This document shows, in pieces, positions 28,547 through 39,253 of a stretch of DNA of 64,000 bases. The DNA is from an uncultured Candidatus Competibacteraceae bacterium (GTDB taxonomy: Bacteria; Pseudomonadota; Gammaproteobacteria; Competibacterales; Competibacteraceae), in the NCBI GenBank assembly GCA_903879705.1, contig CAIRMO010000037.1:3698-67697 (forward strand). The letters run 5' to 3'. Numbering within the stretch: position 1 is the first letter of the stretch; every line of letters starts with the position of its first letter. Position numbers and translations under genes: made by a program. The notes under the pieces are model-generated. The model was given only the letters and a program-made list of their open reading frames with translations. It made no database searches and was not told the origin of the DNA.

Positions 28547-30022
28547 TCATCCGGCTGACTTGGGGCGAGCGGGCATTTCTACCGCCAGATACAACGACCC
28601 GTCATGGCGTTTGACCAGCAGCGGCGTCCGCTGGCCCGGTGGCAGTTCCTTAACGAGCTGGCGCAGATGGGCGGCATCCTTGATCTTCTGGCTATTGAGG
28701 CTCACCAGAATATCGCCCGGCTGTACCCCAGCCTCGGCGGCGGCGCCCGGCCCGACCTGTTGCACCAGTACCCCGCCTTCGCCTTGACCACGCTGGCCAG
28801 CGGGCAACTCGGCCACGGCAATGTTCAGCCGTGGCGAATCGTTATCCGGTGCGCTGTTCAGCGCCAATTCGCCTTGATTCTGTTCGGGTAACTGGCCGAG
28901 GGTGATAGCGATTTCTTGCTCCCGGCCGTCGCGAATCACGATCAACGTCCGGTTTGCGCCGGGTTTGGTCGAACCGACCAGCGGCGGCAGATCGGTGCTG
29001 TCGTTCACCGGCTTGCCGGCGTAACCGACGATGATATCGCCCGCTTTCAAACCCGCCTTGGCGGCAGGGCTGTCGATACTGACATCCGCCACCAACGCCC
29101 CGCGTGGCTGCTCCAGCTTGAACGAGCGCGCCAGATCCTGGGTGACCTCCTGCAAGGTGACACCCATCCAACCCCGGGTGACATGCCCATCATTCTTGAG
29201 TTGATCGACCACATTCATCGCGACGTTCATCGGGATGGCGAACGATAGCCCCATATAACCGCCGCTGCGGCTGAAAATCTGGGAGTTGACGCCCACCACC
29301 TTGCCATTGAGATCGAACAGCGGGCCGCCAGAATTGCCGGGGTTGATCGGTACATCGGTCTGGATGAACGGCACATAAGTATCGTTCGGCAGCGAGCGGC
29401 CCAAGGCGCTGACGATGCCCTTGGTCGCCGTGCGCTCCAGCCCAAACGGCGCACCGATGGCGAACACCCACTGGCCGACCTTGAGGCTGTCAACGTCGCC
29501 GATGGTCACGGTGGGCAAATCAGTGGCGGCGATCTTCAGCAGGGCAATATCCGATTGCGGGTCGCCACCGATGACCTTGGCCGGAAACTCGCGCTTGTCA
29601 TTCAGTTTAACGGTGATTTTTTCCGCCCCGTCCACGACATGATGGTTGGTGATCAGATAGCCATCGCTGGAGAGGATGAAGCCGGAGCCGAGCCCTTGGG
29701 TCGGTGCCCCCTGACCTTTGCCGCCCGGCATGGGGAACGGCCTGAACAGTTCGCCGAACGGGTTGTTTTCATCGTCCGGGGTGGACATCCCGCGCCCGGC
29801 TACGGCGGACGCGCGCTTGCCAGTTATGGCGATGTTGACCACCGCCGCCGCGTTTTGCTGAACCAGCGTACTGAAATCCGGGACCGTCATTTCTACCCGG
29901 ATTGGCGGTGGCGCACTATCGATTGCCAACGCCGGCGACAGTGCGCCGATCGCCAGAACCGCGCTGCTGGTTGCCAGCGCTATCGCCATCGTGAGTTTTT
30001 TGGGAGTGCTGGGAAATGGCAT
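28547..30022 (-). CDS. Periplasmic serine endoprotease, DegP/DegQ/MucD (HtrA) family, two PDZ domains
   Basis: 491 aa with a signal peptide, ITNHHVV (His), DIALLK (Asp) and GNSGGPL (Ser), followed by two PDZ-like segments. Confidence 0.92.
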   Translation of the reverse strand: MPFPSTPKKLTMAIALATSSAVLAIGALSPALAIDSAPPPIRVEMTVPDFSTLVQQNAAAVVNIAITGKRASAVAGRGMSTPDDENNPFGELFRPFPMPGGKGQGAPTQGLGSGFILSSDGYLITNHHVVDGAEKITVKLNDKREFPAKVIGGDPQSDIALLKIAATDLPTVTIGDVDSLKVGQWVFAIGAPFGLERTATKGIVSALGRSLPNDTYVPFIQTDVPINPGNSGGPLFDLNGKVVGVNSQIFSRSGGYMGLSFAIPMNVAMNVVDQLKNDGHVTRGWMGVTLQEVTQDLARSFKLEQPRGALVADVSIDSPAAKAGLKAGDIIVGYAGKPVNDSTDLPPLVGSTKPGANRTLIVIRDGREQEIAITLGQLPEQNQGELALNSAPDNDSPRLNIAVAELPAGQRGQGEGGVLVQQVGPGAAAEAGVQPGDILVSLNSQKIKDAAHLRQLVKELPPGQRTPLLVKRHDGSLYLAVEMPARPKSAG

Positions 30023-30055
30023 CGATGTTTACCTCGCGCAGTGTGAGCGGCTATC

Positions 30056-30078
30056 GGGATCGGAACCGTTCCGATCCC
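30056..30078. promoter_or_regulatory. Perfect 11-bp-arm palindrome GGGATCGGAAC-C-GTTCCGATCCC in the HtrA leader
   Basis: Read directly from the sequence, 34-56 nt upstream of the protease start codon. Function unknown; could be an operator or an RNA hairpin. Confidence 0.3.
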
Positions 30079-30633
30079 TTGGTTGCCCGCCATTGTTCCC
30101 GGCGATGCTTAAGGAAAACTTAAGGCCGAATTTGCGGGCGGCAAGAAAATCGCTGCCGCCTTTTCCGACGCAACAGGTTCGTCAACTGTTCCAGAAGTCT
30201 TCCGCATCTACGCGCCGAAGGATCCGCCCGCTCGCCCGTTATCCAAAGGTTTTTGTTAATAAAGCACTGATTAAAAAATAAAAGATGAGATTGGTTTATC
30301 AAGCCAGATAATTTTTTGTAGAATTCGTTTTTTTATTTTATTTATCAACTTGTTATGTATTTCAGAAAAATATCGTCTTAAAAATTAAATAACTAATATA
30401 ATCAATGTCATGTATCGATTTAGCGAAATTTTCCCGATTTTTTTATGCGCGTCAAAACATTTTCCACTGAAAGCATGGTACGCTTTAAACCATAACATTT
30501 TAGGAACTCGGGATAACCGCCGGCGAGTTTCGGTTTCCCCCAGCCCACCCGTGGAGGTTAACTCTTGAATGAATGCAACGAACCCCGCTGCTCAGCTCAA
30601 TTTTTCCGCCCGAGCGTTACTGGTTTTCGGACA

Positions 30634-31017
30634 ATGATTTTGATGGCCGCCTTAGCCCTGTCCGCCAGCCTCCCGACCGCCGCCGACGCCCGCAGCCCAA
30701 AAACGGCCAAGGCTGCCAGGATGGTGGACGGCCAACAGGTCGGCAAGGCGTCCTGGTACGGACCGGGATTTAATGGCAAGAAAACCGCTAGCGGCCAACC
30801 TTTTAACCAGGATGCGCTCACCGCCGCTCATCCGCGTTTGCCCTTGGGGACCCGGGCCAAGGTCACAAATCTCTATAATGGCAGGGAAGTTGAGGTGACG
30901 ATCAACGACCGTGGACCTCACGGCGGTGGACGGATTATCGACCTGTCCCGTGCCGCAGCGAGGCAACTGGGAATGGGCGGCAGCGCCCGCGTCAGCATTG
31001 TGGCGATCTCGAATTAA
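30634..31017 (+). CDS. RlpA-like double-psi beta-barrel (DPBB) lipoprotein/lytic transglycosylase-like protein
   Basis: Trimmed to ATG 30634 (signal MILMAALALSASLPTAADA). Contains GKASWYGPGFNGKKTASGQPF and VTINDRGP motifs typical of the RlpA DPBB domain. Confidence 0.8.
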   Translation: MILMAALALSASLPTAADARSPKTAKAARMVDGQQVGKASWYGPGFNGKKTASGQPFNQDALTAAHPRLPLGTRAKVTNLYNGREVEVTINDRGPHGGGRIIDLSRAAARQLGMGGSARVSIVAISN

Positions 31018-31181
31018 CTATTGTGCAGCGAGACTCCTTGAATCTCTTTCCGGCAATCGCAAGCGCGCTACCGCGATTCCAGAGCATCCTTGCGACGGAC
31101 CATACTTGACGTCGCGCAGACTCTAAAGCACCATCTTAATTGTGCAGTTAAACTGAGATTTTTAATGAAGAGAGGTTGCCC

Positions 31182-31610
31182 ATGCTGAATTCACGTCGCT
31201 TTGCGACAACCCTGTTATCGCTTGGCCTGGTCGCCAGCCTGACCGGTGGATCGATGGTTCAAGCCGCCGACCCTGCGCCACCCGCCGCCAAAGCCGTTCC
31301 AGCCCCGATTGACCTCTCGTTTCCTGATGGCGAAGATTGGACTACCGCCACCGAACGGGAAAAAATGGCTTACCTGCTCGGCATCCGCGACATGGCGTCA
31401 GCGGAATACCAGTTGACCGGCCCCAATCCCAAGCGTCGCACCCTGGTCGAAAAGCTGGTTAAGGCGCTGGACGGCATGGCCCTGCGGCACATCATGGAAG
31501 CCATCGACGGGTACTACAAGGCGAATCCCGACAAACAGAAGCGATCGATTTTCGAGGTTATCTGGTTCCAACTGGTCGTGCCCAAAGTCGGCCCGGCCAA
31601 GATCAAGTGA
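31182..31610 (+). CDS. Hypothetical exported protein
   Basis: Signal peptide MLNSRRFATTLLSLGLVASLTGGSMVQA, with AGAGAGG 7 nt upstream of the ATG. No recognised domain. Confidence 0.5.
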   Translation: MLNSRRFATTLLSLGLVASLTGGSMVQAADPAPPAAKAVPAPIDLSFPDGEDWTTATEREKMAYLLGIRDMASAEYQLTGPNPKRRTLVEKLVKALDGMALRHIMEAIDGYYKANPDKQKRSIFEVIWFQLVVPKVGPAKIK

Positions 31611-31624
31611 GGGGGCACATAGAT

Positions 31625-31867
31625 ATGAACAAGATAGGCTATTTAATCGTGATTCCGGCGCTGGCGTTGAGCGTCGGCTGCACCAACATGACGCCCACTG
31701 AACAAAGCACCATGAGCGGCGCGGCCATCGGCGCACTGGGCGGCGCGGCTATCGGCGGGTTGAGCGGCGGCAATGCGGGCGTTGGCGCAGTGATTGGCGG
31801 GGCCGCCGGCGCGGTGGTCGGGAATATCTACGGACGGAATCAGCAGCAGCAACGTTCCAACTATTAA
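31625..31867 (+). CDS. Glycine-zipper small lipoprotein (OsmB/YMGG-like)
   Basis: Lipobox LSVGC, then GAAIGALGGAAIGGLSGGNAGVGAVIGGAAGAVVG glycine-zipper repeats. Confidence 0.7.
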   Translation: MNKIGYLIVIPALALSVGCTNMTPTEQSTMSGAAIGALGGAAIGGLSGGNAGVGAVIGGAAGAVVGNIYGRNQQQQRSNY

Positions 31868-31939: not shown

Positions 31940-32758
31940 TTAAAGATCCTGTTCAGTCGGAACCGCAGCCAGATCACGACGCAATTCCGCCGCCGCTTCC
32001 CGCAATAACCCGAATACCCGCTTTACCCCTGCGCAGTCATAGTCACGACGCGGCCATTTGAAGTAACCACCGCAACTCTTGAGAAACTCACACGTCCGGC
32101 ATTCTTCCGCAGTCGCCAGGACCTGATCGAACCCGGTCTTTGAATCGGCATCCGGCAAAATCGTCAGATCAGCGCCCGCTAACCGGCCACTCAACGATTC
32201 TGTGCCGTCGGCGGCGATGTAGCGCACGATGCCGGGATTCTCATCCAGAATCAGCCATAACGGGATGGGTTCGTCATGGTAGAACCCCAGCAGCGCCCCG
32301 TGGAAATACTCGACAGGTTGGGCCACGGTCGGTTGGTGCAGATAAAACTCCAGCACCGCCGCCAGTTCCTCGATCAGCGCTGGATCGGGTTGCTCCAACT
32401 CCAGCCGCACTGCAAAATCCAGCGCCGCTGCTGTTTTGACCGCCTTGCCGAAACCCGGCGCCACAGTCATTGCAATCTGCACCGGATGGTTATCGAGCAG
32501 ATTGGTATGGCGATACAGCAATGGAAATTCGGCGGCGGGGTCGCGCATGAGCAGTTCAATGGGTAAACCCGGCGCCCAGGCGTTCAGCGGTTCGGAATCC
32601 GCGTCCAGGTTCAACAGTTGCACCGCAATCACCCGTCCCGGGTCTTCCGGCGTCAGCGCCGCGATCAGCTCGGCCGGATCGCTGGCCCGGACTATCAGCC
32701 TACCCTCGCGATCATCCGGGAGCCGATGGGCGGGGATGTTGTAGATCAGTGAATTCAT
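31940..32758 (-). CDS. Hypothetical protein with a C-terminal SPASM/twitch-like Cys motif (CxxCx5Cx12C) but no CxxxCxxC radical-SAM motif
   Basis: ORF trimmed to ATG 32758 (MNSLIYNIPAHRL), giving 272 aa. There are only four Cys, all within ECRTCEFLKSCGGYFKWPRRDYDC. It lies 50 nt downstream of, and co-directional with, the Gly/Trp repeat gene. Confidence 0.55.
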   Translation of the reverse strand: MNSLIYNIPAHRLPDDREGRLIVRASDPAELIAALTPEDPGRVIAVQLLNLDADSEPLNAWAPGLPIELLMRDPAAEFPLLYRHTNLLDNHPVQIAMTVAPGFGKAVKTAAALDFAVRLELEQPDPALIEELAAVLEFYLHQPTVAQPVEYFHGALLGFYHDEPIPLWLILDENPGIVRYIAADGTESLSGRLAGADLTILPDADSKTGFDQVLATAEECRTCEFLKSCGGYFKWPRRDYDCAGVKRVFGLLREAAAELRRDLAAVPTEQDL

Positions 32759-32808
32759 TACGGGTTGCTCCGGTGGTGAAATCAGGGGTCGCCGGGGATC
32801 GGGATCGA

Positions 32809-33255
32809 TCAACGATTGTACCAACCGCCGCCCTCGCCTTGGCCGTTGTACCAGCCACCGTTGTACCAAGGCCGATTATTCCAGGACCGGTTATACCAAC
32901 CACGGTTATTCCAGGGCCGGTCATACCCGCCGCCGGTGTTGTACCAGCCACCGCCGCCCAGGTTGATCCAGCCGCCACCCCAGCCGCCACCCCAGCCACC
33001 GCCCCAGCCGCCACCACCCAAATTGACCCAACTGCCGTTGCCGCCGCCCCGATTACCCCAGCCCAATGCCTTGGCGTCACGTTCGGGCGTGACCAAGCCA
33101 CCGCCCAGCAGAACGCCGCCGATCACGGCTTTCGACCAGCGCCCCAGACTGACCAGGAAATCCCGGCGACGGTGTTGTTGTTCATCCAGCGGCGCTGGCG
33201 CGCTGTCCTGTGGTTGGGGATTTGCCGACATGGATTTGTCTTCTTGATCAGTCAT
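32809..33255 (-). CDS. Tat-signal Gly/Trp/Asn-rich repeat protein (GrrA-like/triceptide-precursor-like)
   Basis: - ATG at 33255 is preceded by GGAGGTGG.
- Twin-arginine motif RRRDFLVSLG, an h-region and AKA follow.
- The C-terminal roughly 85 aa are almost entirely G, W, N, R and Y.
- They contain a GGGW x4 run and 10 W-x-N triplets. Confidence 0.65.
   Translation of the reverse strand: MTDQEDKSMSANPQPQDSAPAPLDEQQHRRRDFLVSLGRWSKAVIGGVLLGGGLVTPERDAKALGWGNRGGGNGSWVNLGGGGWGGGWGGGWGGGWINLGGGGWYNTGGGYDRPWNNRGWYNRSWNNRPWYNGGWYNGQGEGGGWYNR
32968..33015 (-). repeat. Tandem 12-nt coding repeat (CCAGCCGCCACC x4 on the plus strand, encoding GGGW x4)
   Basis: Four consecutive 12-mers read directly from the sequence; the third copy has the variant CCAGCCACCGCC. 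Confidence 0.85.
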
Positions 33256-33375
33256 AAACCACCTCCGCCTTTGTAAACGACATCGAATTTTTCCCCAGGC
33301 TGTATCATTATCCACTACATTATCGATGCATCCTCCCTAAATTTCTGCTGAACGCCCATCTTGCAGGTTGATTCC

Positions 33376-35646
33376 ATGCCTTATCGCTCGCGCCATCGCC
33401 GCCGTTTTCACCGATCTGGCATCCTGTTGCTGGCTTTGTTGATGTTGACAGGTTTTGATCCGGCGCTGGATGCCGTAGCAGCCGGATCGGGACGTTCTCG
33501 CGTTGGTTTGGTGTTGGGCGGGGGCGGCGCTCGCGGCATCGCGCACATCGGCGTCCTGAAAATGCTGGAGGAACTGCGGATTCCCGTGGACTGCATCGCC
33601 GGTACCAGTATGGGATCGATCATCGGCGGCTTGTACGCTTCCGGTATGACGCCCGACCAAATGAACGAAGCCGTGCAACGGATCGACTGGCCAAAGGCGT
33701 TTACCGACGGCCCACCCCGCGCCGATCTGCCGTTTCGCATCAAAGAGGAACAGCGGGTTTTGTTAACCGATGTTGGCGTTGGGGTCAAGGACTGGAGCGT
33801 GCAACTGCCCAGAAGTCTGTTGCAGGGTCAGAATTTGTCGCTGCTGCTGGAGGCATTGGCGCTGCCGGCAGCGGAAATCCACAATTTCGATCGATTGCGG
33901 ATTCCCTACCGGGCAGTAGCGACCGATTTAGCGACGGGTAAGCCGGTGGTGCTGGGTTCCGGCAACCTGGCGACAGCGATGCGGGCCAGCATGTCCATCC
34001 CCAGCGCCCTGGCGCCGGTGGAGCTGGATGGCAAACTGCTGGTGGACGGCGGTGTGTCGGACAACGTGCCGGTAGACGTTGCCCGCGCCCTCTGCAAACC
34101 CGATGTCATTATTGCCGTGGACGTAGGCGCGCCGCTGGCCCCGGCCAGTGAATTGACCTCGGTGCTGTCCATCACCGCGCAACTCACCACTATCCTGACC
34201 GTCCGCAATGTTGAGGAACAAATGAAAACGCTGGGTCCGAAAGATATCCGGATCACGCCTGATCTCAAGGATATTGGCAGCATTGATTTCGACCGTTCCG
34301 CCGAAGCGGTCCAAATCGGCTATGCGGCAGCCCAGACTCAACACAACGCCCTAAGCCGGCTATCGATATCGCCGGACGATTATCGAGCCTGTCTGGCGGC
34401 CCGACCGGAGATCGTGCCCAATACCGATCAGCCCGTCATCAACTTTATCCGGGTCAAGAACAACACCCGACTGGCTAACGAGGTGATTGAGAAACAGCTG
34501 CATATCCAGCCGGGTGATCGACTTGATCCGCAACAACTGAACCGTAATCTCAATGTAATTTATGGCATGGGCGATTTTCAACAGGTGGACTACTCGCTAG
34601 TCGAGGAAGACGGCAAGACTGGGCTGCTGATCGAGGCCAGAGAGCAATATATTGGAGATAACCGGCTAAATTTTGGTCTTTTTTTGGGAGCGAATCTGAA
34701 GGGTGATTCCATGTTCAACATCAGCGCGGCCTACACCATGTCGCAACTGAATCCGTTGGGCGGGCAATGGCGCAACTTTGTCCAAATCGGCGGCAACCTC
34801 GCGCTGGAAACTGACTTTTACCAGCCGCTCAATGCCGATCAGGATTATTACCTCGATCCCTACTTGAGCTATCAGCAATACAACCTGGATTTACAAGATA
34901 AAACCTCCGCTGCGACCAGCGCCAGCTATCGGGTGCGTCAAGCGGGATTGGGGCTGGAACTGGGCCGGAACCTGGAGCATTGGGGGCGGCTGTCGCTGGG
35001 GTTGCATTACAGCGCCGGGCGAAACGATCTGCGCTTCGGGCAATCTCCGGGTGACAAAAGCGAGTTCGATAACGAAGGCGAGTTCAACAACAGCGGTTAT
35101 TCGCTTCGCTTGGCGGCAGATACCCTGGACAACATCAACTTCCCGACTTCAGGGGACTACGCCAACCTCCGCTACTACAGCGCCTTAACCGGGCTGGGGG
35201 CCGACCAGAATTTCCAGACCCTGAGCCTGGATGCCTTCAAGCCTTACACCTGGGGCAGGTCCACCCTGATTCCGCGCTTCCGGCTGGCAGGTACGCTGGA
35301 TGGCGATCCCGGCGTGGAAAACCTGTTCCTGTTGGGCGGTTTCCTCAACCTGTCGGGTTATCAAATCGGTCAGCTTTCCGGGCAATACCTCGCCTTTGGG
35401 GAACTGATCTACCTGTACCGGCTCAACGACGCCTCAGCAGCGTTCACCATTCCGCTCTACGCCGGCGCTTCGCTGGAAGTCGGTGGGGCATGGATGAATA
35501 CCGATGAGATCAGCAGCGACTCGCTGATTCCGGCGGGCAGTCTGTTTCTGGGCGCCGACACGCCATTGGGGCCGTTTTATCTAGGTGCGGGTTTCGCCGA
35601 TGGCAGCCATGCCTCGCTGTACATGATGCTGGGTAAGCTGTTCTGA
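33376..35646 (+). CDS. Patatin-like phospholipase fused to POTRA plus an Omp85-type beta-barrel (PlpD-like, type Vd secretion)
   Basis: Signal peptide, GGGGARG oxyanion motif, GTSMGS lipase serine, DGGVSDN catalytic Asp, then about 400 aa rich in beta-strands ending in the aromatic terminus MMLGKLF. Confidence 0.87.
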   Translation: MPYRSRHRRRFHRSGILLLALLMLTGFDPALDAVAAGSGRSRVGLVLGGGGARGIAHIGVLKMLEELRIPVDCIAGTSMGSIIGGLYASGMTPDQMNEAVQRIDWPKAFTDGPPRADLPFRIKEEQRVLLTDVGVGVKDWSVQLPRSLLQGQNLSLLLEALALPAAEIHNFDRLRIPYRAVATDLATGKPVVLGSGNLATAMRASMSIPSALAPVELDGKLLVDGGVSDNVPVDVARALCKPDVIIAVDVGAPLAPASELTSVLSITAQLTTILTVRNVEEQMKTLGPKDIRITPDLKDIGSIDFDRSAEAVQIGYAAAQTQHNALSRLSISPDDYRACLAARPEIVPNTDQPVINFIRVKNNTRLANEVIEKQLHIQPGDRLDPQQLNRNLNVIYGMGDFQQVDYSLVEEDGKTGLLIEAREQYIGDNRLNFGLFLGANLKGDSMFNISAAYTMSQLNPLGGQWRNFVQIGGNLALETDFYQPLNADQDYYLDPYLSYQQYNLDLQDKTSAATSASYRVRQAGLGLELGRNLEHWGRLSLGLHYSAGRNDLRFGQSPGDKSEFDNEGEFNNSGYSLRLAADTLDNINFPTSGDYANLRYYSALTGLGADQNFQTLSLDAFKPYTWGRSTLIPRFRLAGTLDGDPGVENLFLLGGFLNLSGYQIGQLSGQYLAFGELIYLYRLNDASAAFTIPLYAGASLEVGGAWMNTDEISSDSLIPAGSLFLGADTPLGPFYLGAGFADGSHASLYMMLGKLF

Positions 35647-37322: not shown

Positions 37323-37438
37323 GGCAGGTTCCTCGTTGCAGAGATGGAAAAGCAATTATTGACCCGAAATCGCCGCTTGAGTTAATTTGCAAGTCATGAA
37401 ACATCCGCGATCCATCGAACGGTTTGAACTGCGACTGA

Positions 37439-39253
<1,815 letters not shown>

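Follow-up and report, generated by a model that had tools for sequence, protein, structure and literature searches.

We analyzed two adjacent genes in a 64,000-nucleotide stretch of an uncultured Candidatus Competibacteraceae bacterium (contig CAIRMO010000037.1 of assembly GCA_903879705.1, positions 3,698 to 67,697 of the forward strand), hereafter called the window. One gene encodes a precursor protein with a glycine- and tryptophan-rich repeat core, and the other a 272-residue protein of an unannotated family, which we call the partner. A third gene, for a radical S-adenosylmethionine (SAM) enzyme with a SPASM domain (the maturase), is adjacent to the pair in other phyla; it lies at another locus in related Competibacteraceae genomes and is absent from the window. 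We favor, at a probability of roughly 0.55, the reading that the two window genes belong to a conserved, triceptide-related radical-SAM peptide-maturation system of three components, in which the partner is a pseudo-radical-SAM accessory subunit.

In the proposed mechanism, the precursor would be made with a leader of about 63 residues, which would also be its twin-arginine (Tat) signal. In the cytoplasm, the maturase would act in trans and cross-link the tryptophan of each W-x-N triplet to the asparagine side chain, forming three-residue cyclophanes with an expected change of -2 Da per motif. The partner would be kin to the maturase but not catalytic, having lost the SAM-binding cluster and kept one four-cysteine iron-sulfur site. 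As an obligatory accessory subunit, it might hold the leader, present the core to the enzyme and perhaps relay electrons. The modified product would then leave by the Tat pathway, with the leader cut after A-K-A.

The core carries the motif that this chemistry would act on. W-x-N is an established cyclophane motif: OscB joins Trp C7 to the C-beta of Asn or Asp, and XncB joins Trp C6 to the C-beta of Arg or Asn (PMC11002830). The triceptide class and its aromatic-X-X motif were defined in PMC11499958, and the core of the window precursor has 10 W-x-N triplets.

The gene trio and its split in Competibacteraceae

A scan of species-representative genomes with alignment A1 found 132 stretches with the pair, and gene neighborhoods were read at 80 loci. 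The pair occurs in Competibacteraceae, in Chromatiaceae (including the cultured Thiorhodococcus minor and Rhabdochromatium marinum), in Pyrinomonadaceae/Blastocatellia (Acidobacteriota), in Rokubacteria and in delta-proteobacterial lineages. In nearly every locus with enough sequence, a leader-bearing W-x-N precursor with an AxA-like site lies directly 5' of the partner. Outside Competibacteraceae, 28 of the 30 loci with sufficient downstream sequence have a gene of about 400 codons directly 3' of the partner. In 20 of these 28 its start overlaps the partner stop by 4 nt, the usual mark of translationally coupled subunits. Judged from its motifs, the protein it encodes is a true radical-SAM/SPASM enzyme: it has the motif CNxxCxYCFEDKT, and its SPASM domain scores 51–52 bits (cut-off 27).

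In Competibacteraceae the maturase gene has a locus of its own; at none of the 49 Competibacteraceae-type loci does it occur within 6 kb. In the 64-kb window, no open reading frame (ORF) of at least 100 residues contains CxxxCxxC, and tblastn with a cassette maturase (the enzyme encoded beside the pair in other taxa) gave no match, which rules out a maturase overlooked near the pair. A search with the Thiorhodococcus cassette enzyme returned Competibacteraceae orthologues at 60–63% identity, including those of Contendobacter and of Competibacter denitrificans Run_A_D11.

Pair and enzyme were found on separate contigs of the metagenome-assembled genome (MAG) SJ320 (GCA_020846135.1), whose partner is 86% identical to that of the window: the pair is on JADLEK010000018.1 (locus L004) and the enzyme on JADLEK010000061.1 (L086). 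Directly 3' of the SJ320 enzyme lies a second precursor gene (L086, 7386..7913, plus strand; likewise at L084 and L085). Its product shares the leader and carries about 17 near-perfect GGGW[FYH]NR repeats, a core far more regular than that of the window, and in SJ320 no partner stands beside the gene. In Run_A_D11 the pair is at L041; the enzyme, P0358, is named from that strain, and its context was read in other assemblies (L087 and L088). The C. denitrificans enzyme stands alone, with no neighboring precursor. From these same-genome cases we conclude that the lineage has two loci: locus A holds a precursor and the partner, as in the window, and locus B holds the enzyme with or without a second precursor. 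Because the operon is split in this way, a genome-mining search in which a maturase must adjoin the precursor would overlook the entire Competibacteraceae branch.

A few loci depart from these patterns. At a Pyrinomonadaceae locus (L077, 6832..7533), the adjacent maturase matches residues 109–342 only and may be truncated or a pseudogene. Two other Acidobacteriota loci (L073 and L081) have no adjacent maturase; outside Competibacteraceae, too, the gene may have been lost or relocated independently. Competibacteraceae-type pairs with 62–63% identity also appear on contigs labelled as other taxa: JAAUTD010000123.1 (L054), assigned to Synechococcaceae cyanobacterium SM1_2_3, and JACSSB010000040.1 (L083), assigned to Phycisphaerales GAO1. 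The SM1_2_3 MAG also carries a matching radical-SAM gene, P0370. Both contigs are likely mis-binned.

The partner family

The partner gene (31940..32758, minus strand) begins 50 nt 3' of the precursor stop on the same strand, and the spacer (32759..32808, minus strand) contains GGAG 9 nt 5' of the partner ATG. Its 272-residue product has an alpha/beta N-terminal part and a C-terminal four-cysteine motif. The only cysteines, C220, C223, C229 and C242, form CxxCx5Cx12C. In full, the motif reads C220-x2-C223-x5-C229-GGYFKWP-x5-C242 (32033..32101, minus strand); conservation and alignment point to one probable [4Fe-4S] site that corresponds to half of a SPASM motif. The partner contains no CxxxCxxC motif and has no Pfam match to the radical-SAM domain PF04055. 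An earlier reading of the window made from the sequence alone (the sequence-only reading) had described the protein in the same way: co-directional, 272 residues, 50 nt downstream, with these four cysteines and no CxxxCxxC.

The window belongs to a Candidatus Contendobacter genome: a hypothetical protein from a MAG of that genus (MBZ4193047.1) matches the window partner at 100% identity. There are 409 close homologues, mostly from Competibacteraceae, and the distant representatives form 302 clusters at 50% identity, nearly all about 270 residues long and matching end to end. Neither Pfam nor NCBIfam assigns the partner to a family. The sequence-only reading had named a confident match to an unrelated family, together with a failure of the pair to recur elsewhere, as grounds for abandoning its proposal; no family in those two collections matched, and the pair co-occurs at about 130 loci. 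Across 54 family members with 27–47% identity to the window partner, the four cysteines are the only invariant columns. G231, Y232 and F233 are nearly invariant, and no His, Asp or Glu of catalytic type is invariant.

Several comparisons connect the partner with the maturase. Against the SPASM domain (TIGR04085 / PF13186) the partner scores 13.6 bits (E = 0.067, cut-off 27) and has four cysteines rather than the seven that bind two auxiliary clusters; just 3 of the 54 members give such a weak SPASM match. There are also weak matches to the profile hidden Markov model (HMM) of the HxsC C-terminal region. Matches at E ≤ 1 include neither the pseudo-SAM/SPASM family TIGR04347 nor PsgB (TIGR04419). 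Profile alignment with hhalign against the cassette maturases gave P of about 1e-4 and a probability of 58%, placing partner residues 85–265 on enzyme residues 179–376. In this alignment C220, C223, C229 and C242 fall on maturase C322, C325, C331 and C353, and the CX3C cysteine C335 is left unmatched. The partner cysteines therefore correspond to CX2CX5C...C, the second half of the maturase SPASM motif. In the published anSME structure, the equivalent four positions ligate the second auxiliary cluster.

In its predicted fold, too, the partner weakly resembles radical-SAM proteins. The AlphaFold2 (AF2) model of the partner has a mean predicted local distance difference test (pLDDT) score of 75 and a predicted template modeling score of 0.75, with confident alternating beta/alpha structure over residues 1–160. 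Among predicted viral structures, the top Foldseek matches are radical-SAM / Fe-S oxidoreductase proteins (best E = 1.9e-3, template modeling scores 0.48–0.52). Against the PDB, Foldseek returned weak generic TIM-barrel matches only, and a search of PDB sequences with the partner profile found nothing. The partner is about 100 residues shorter than the maturase. In sum, it looks like a shortened relative of the maturase, without the SAM cluster and with one iron-sulfur site probably kept.

The sequence-only reading had coupled the precursor to a degenerate or novel partner. That part fits what we see, since hhalign and Foldseek liken the partner to a degenerate radical-SAM/SPASM protein. It does not hold that the precursor is coupled to such a partner alone, since a genuine maturase exists, encoded next to the pair in those 28 of 30 loci outside Competibacteraceae.

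In some organisms the partner domain is part of a larger protein. Proteins P0152, P0187, P0203 and P0236 join it to bona fide radical-SAM domains of other types, whereas in P0196 and P0201 it is joined to DUF483 plus a methyltransferase. Two of the fusion clusters, those of P0152 and P0203, were examined: a cassette-type maturase homologue (36–45% identity) is present, and the precursors have the same leader with other cores, such as WNKW-RPP repeats. In P0203 the partner domain is fused to an HxsC-like radical-SAM domain; a kinship between these two, as by internal duplication, was rejected at an hhalign probability of 0.07%. In a metagenomic cluster (L090, 1552..8361) there are four radical-SAM genes, a 103-residue ORF and two precursors that have the leader but cores of a non-Gly/Trp type; one of the radical-SAM genes encodes a HemN-like enzyme fused to the partner domain. 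This cluster appears related to the trio system but more elaborate.

The precursor, its leader and its neighborhood

The precursor gene (32809..33255, minus strand) encodes 148 residues and is preceded by a Shine-Dalgarno sequence, GGAGG (33262..33266, minus strand), 6 nt 5' of its ATG. Residues 1–63 (33067..33255, minus strand) form the leader, with a putative Tat-type signal. Its RRRDFL motif (R29–L34; 33154..33171, minus strand) is preceded by His and followed by LGRWSK, then by the Gly-rich h-region AVIGGVLLGGGLV, and then by A61-K-A63. Residues 64–148 (32812..33066, minus strand) form the core, which consists of 85 residues, among them 34 Gly, 13 Trp, 13 Asn, 6 Arg and 6 Tyr, and ends in WYNR.

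Ten of the 13 core tryptophans lie in W-x-N triplets (WGN, WVN, WIN, five WYN and two WNN), and the other three lie in GGGWGG. Chance would give 1.96 W-x-N triplets, and of 200,000 shuffles that preserved the composition not one had as many as 10. The GGGW units are encoded by four tandem 12-nt repeats (32968..33015, minus strand), for which Tandem Repeats Finder reports period 12, 4.0 copies and 88% matches; the copy number of (GGGW)n is not the same in L004, the closest relative. The sequence-only reading had recorded the strong Shine-Dalgarno sequence, the leader with RRRDFL, h-region and AKA, the mature part of about 85 residues and the four 12-nt repeats, all of which we recovered. Its statement that all 13 tryptophans fall into the two contexts is correct for the mature part; a 14th, W40, is in the leader.

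The opposite strand carries a proline-rich ORF (32816..33247, plus strand) that is open over 143 codons, and the sequence-only reading had allowed that this might be the real gene. We consider it almost certain that it is not. In comparisons with four orthologues, substitutions at minus-strand codon positions 1/2/3 numbered 18/8/36 and 22/14/61, so that position 3 takes most of them. The minus-strand leader is also kept as a protein across phyla in spite of differing DNA. A proline-rich mirror frame is to be expected opposite any run of GGN codons. Given the position-3 bias of the minus frame and the conserved leader, we ruled out the plus-strand ORF as a gene and regard it as the mirror image of the glycine codons.

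Orthologous precursors share the leader motif RRxF(L)xxLG(K/R)WS, in its fuller form ...RRxF(L)xxLG(K/R)WSxxVIGG.... In precursor alignments A4 and A5 the invariant positions are R30, R31, F33, W40, S41 and the first core tryptophan. The W-x-N(R) repeats and the C-terminal W-x-N-R are kept across phyla, with repeats of the RPWYNR type in Competibacteraceae and of the GGGGW[VIL]NR type in other taxa. A profile search found 451 precursor relatives; the best 120 of the 451 are all unnamed or called 'hypothetical protein', and none of these is named GrrA. In the precursor of Ca. Competibacter denitrificans (L041, 5558..5968, plus strand), a Pro/Gly-rich insert of about 50 residues (PLPGRPPLGDGPGPRPP...) lies between the cleavage site and the WYNRRR repeats, from which we conclude that the core evolves rapidly.

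A Tat-type leader, as the sequence-only reading had also proposed, is plausible because of the RRRDFL motif and because the leader of one orthologue (L051) passes the TAT_signal_seq model TIGR01409 (17.9 bits, cut-off 16.7). The consensus for such signals is S/T-R-R-x-F-L-K with a moderately hydrophobic h-region and an AxA cleavage site; by eye the window leader offers RRRDFL, AVIGGVLLGGGLV and AKA. The AF2 model of the precursor, built from 46 sequences, has a helix at residues 22–52 with pLDDT up to 92. In the core, pLDDT is about 42 throughout and residues 58–148 have no secondary structure, so no autonomous fold is predicted. A helical leader with a disordered core, as modeled here, is what one expects of a peptide substrate. 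The alternative to a peptide substrate, a core folded into a beta-solenoid in which Asn forms a ladder and Trp stacks, is not supported by this model.

Divergent from the precursor gene is a gene for a patatin-POTRA-Omp85 (PlpD-like) outer-membrane phospholipase (33361..35646, plus strand), and the layout is the same in Ca. Contendobacter odensis (L001), which may reflect a functional link or plain synteny. The downstream neighbors (31607..31867, plus strand, and 28547..31610) are all envelope genes, encoding a Gly-zipper lipoprotein, an unannotated secreted protein of 144 residues, an RlpA-like DPBB protein and a DegP/HtrA protease. Elsewhere in the window, two ORFs overlap on opposite strands (37394..39028, minus strand, 544 residues; 37475..39253, plus strand, 592 residues); the minus-strand ORF has no Pfam match.

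Alternative readings and related systems

Several points weigh against our interpretation of the pair as parts of a maturation system with a pseudo-radical-SAM subunit. What the sequences show is the gene trio, its conservation, its split in Competibacteraceae and the homology relations; the cross-links, an iron-sulfur cluster in the partner, its complex with the maturase, and export are inferred. The similarity of the partner to radical-SAM/SPASM proteins is marginal (hhalign probability 58%, no Foldseek match at E ≤ 1e-3, generic TIM barrels in the PDB), and the cysteine region of its AF2 model has low confidence. The window leader matches neither of the TAT HMMs (TIGR01409 / PF10518). The presence of the maturase is documented in relatives only, the closest of which has an 86% identical partner. 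Finally, the leader is accompanied by the maturase no less faithfully than by the partner, so co-occurrence is silent on which of the two proteins binds the leader.

One alternative is that the partner is an independent enzyme. With its TIM-barrel-like domain and a site for zinc or iron-sulfur, it would put a second, different modification on the precursor without the maturase taking part. Its conservation is as strong as that of the maturase, its weak Foldseek matches in the PDB are TIM-barrel enzymes that include the peptide-modifying MbnB at rank 50, and in Competibacteraceae it is the partner, not the maturase, that stays beside the precursor. However, the family has no invariant polar residues beyond the four cysteines (the His of YLH and of EFFHS is replaced in several members) and matches no enzyme family, and a partner stop that overlaps the maturase start in most operons fits a subunit better. 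We regard an independent enzyme as unlikely. Equally doubtful, in our view, is that the partner serves purely in Tat proofreading, as a chaperone of the TorD, DmsD or NapD kind that binds the leader and delays export until the peptide is fully modified, with no catalytic part. Such a role would suit a leader whose RRxFL motif, h-region and AxA site are conserved across phyla and, in one relative, pass the TAT_signal_seq cut-off, and it would suit a protein that accompanies the leader even where the cores differ. But the partner is unlike the known Tat chaperone families, a simple chaperone has no need of an invariant four-cysteine motif homologous to part of SPASM, and in several organisms the partner is fused to radical-SAM domains.

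A different possibility, which we rate lower again, is that the Competibacteraceae pair no longer takes part in radical-SAM chemistry, the precursor being an unmodified secreted Gly/Trp-rich envelope protein and the partner a relic or repurposed. This could account for a maturase that is missing within 6 kb at all 49 Competibacteraceae-type loci and from the 64-kb window, for cores that have moved from GGGW[VIL]NR to RPWYNR, and for neighbors that are envelope genes (patatin-Omp85, Gly-zipper lipoprotein, RlpA-like and DegP-like). Against it, the same genomes keep a maturase orthologue, which in one lineage has a second precursor with that leader as its neighbor. Across 68 Competibacteraceae partners and 46 precursors, moreover, the four cysteines and the spacing of W-x-N are (nearly) invariant.

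The interpretation of the partner as a pseudo-radical-SAM accessory subunit has a more specific form, which we put forward tentatively as a possibility well short of probable. Here the partner would be a leader-binding protein that recognizes the twin-arginine leader, and a single sequence would serve as leader of a RiPP (a peptide made by ribosomes and modified after translation), as chaperone handle and as Tat signal, with cross-linking checked before Tat release. If true, this would be a quality-control coupling of peptide maturation to Tat export, which has not been described before. Our literature search found no paper joining twin-arginine with radical-SAM/SPASM precursor-peptide maturation, and in a looser search 'twin-arginine' did not occur among the matches listed.

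The partner would represent a new accessory family of about 300 clusters at 50% identity, apparently a fixed third component of radical-SAM peptide maturation in several phyla. Should it be a pseudo-enzyme subunit or a receptor for the leader/Tat signal, it would offer an alternative to PqqD-like recognition elements and link radical-SAM chemistry to Tat export. The products would be Gly/Trp-rich proteins of 80–150 residues with at least 10 putative cyclophanes each. The producers are glycogen-accumulating organisms abundant in wastewater plants.

Among known systems, the closest in design is GrrA/OscA1 with GrrM/OscB (TIGR04260 / TIGR04261). GrrA likewise has a Gly-rich repeat core with aromatic-x-Asn triplets, and GrrM/OscB is a radical-SAM/SPASM maturase of the same broad clade as the present one. 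The window precursor has the Gly-rich C-terminal half with aromatic-x-Asn that characterizes GrrA (34 Gly among 85 residues, 10 W-x-N). It has no match to TIGR04260 at E ≤ 1, and its relatives at L051, L067 and L055 score 25.9, 17.3 and 16.7 bits (cut-off 31). The sequence-only reading had placed the precursor with GrrA and the triceptides; as a statement of kind this is borne out by the proven cyclophane motif and by the relative that comes near the GrrA cut-off. A GrrM/OscB-type neighbor was looked for as well: the window has no radical-SAM gene, and the maturase of the trio, at 77–94 bits, is far below the TIGR04261 cut-off of 310. The present system differs from GrrA/GrrM in its Tat-like leader, RRxFLxxLGKWS, in its obligatory third gene, the partner, and in the split operon of Competibacteraceae. 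To our knowledge, a third gene of the partner type is not part of Grr clusters. The trio would work like the GrrA/GrrM triceptides yet fails their model thresholds, and on the available sequences it is a sister system rather than a member.

The named families that score best for the maturase are DynA (133–152 bits, cut-off 450), anSME (132–149 bits, cut-off 349), DarW (108–117 bits, cut-off 650) and DarE (91–113 bits, cut-off 650), all far below their cut-offs. DarE and DynA cross-link Trp-containing peptides. Dynobactin and darobactin precursors, in contrast, are short peptides with a single core that have neither Gly-rich repeats nor a Tat-like leader, and we know of no partner homologue in the operons of DynA, DarE or DarW.

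For the partner itself, TIGR04347 in NCBIfam and PsgB (TIGR04419) are precedents as radical-SAM look-alikes without the SAM cluster that have already been named as families. With PqqD-like RiPP recognition elements and with TorD, DmsD and NapD the partner would share a role, that of a small dedicated protein holding the leader or signal peptide of a single substrate until modification is done; similarity to these in sequence or fold was not detected. The partner family, which has no Pfam or NCBIfam model, is to us the most interesting element of the system.

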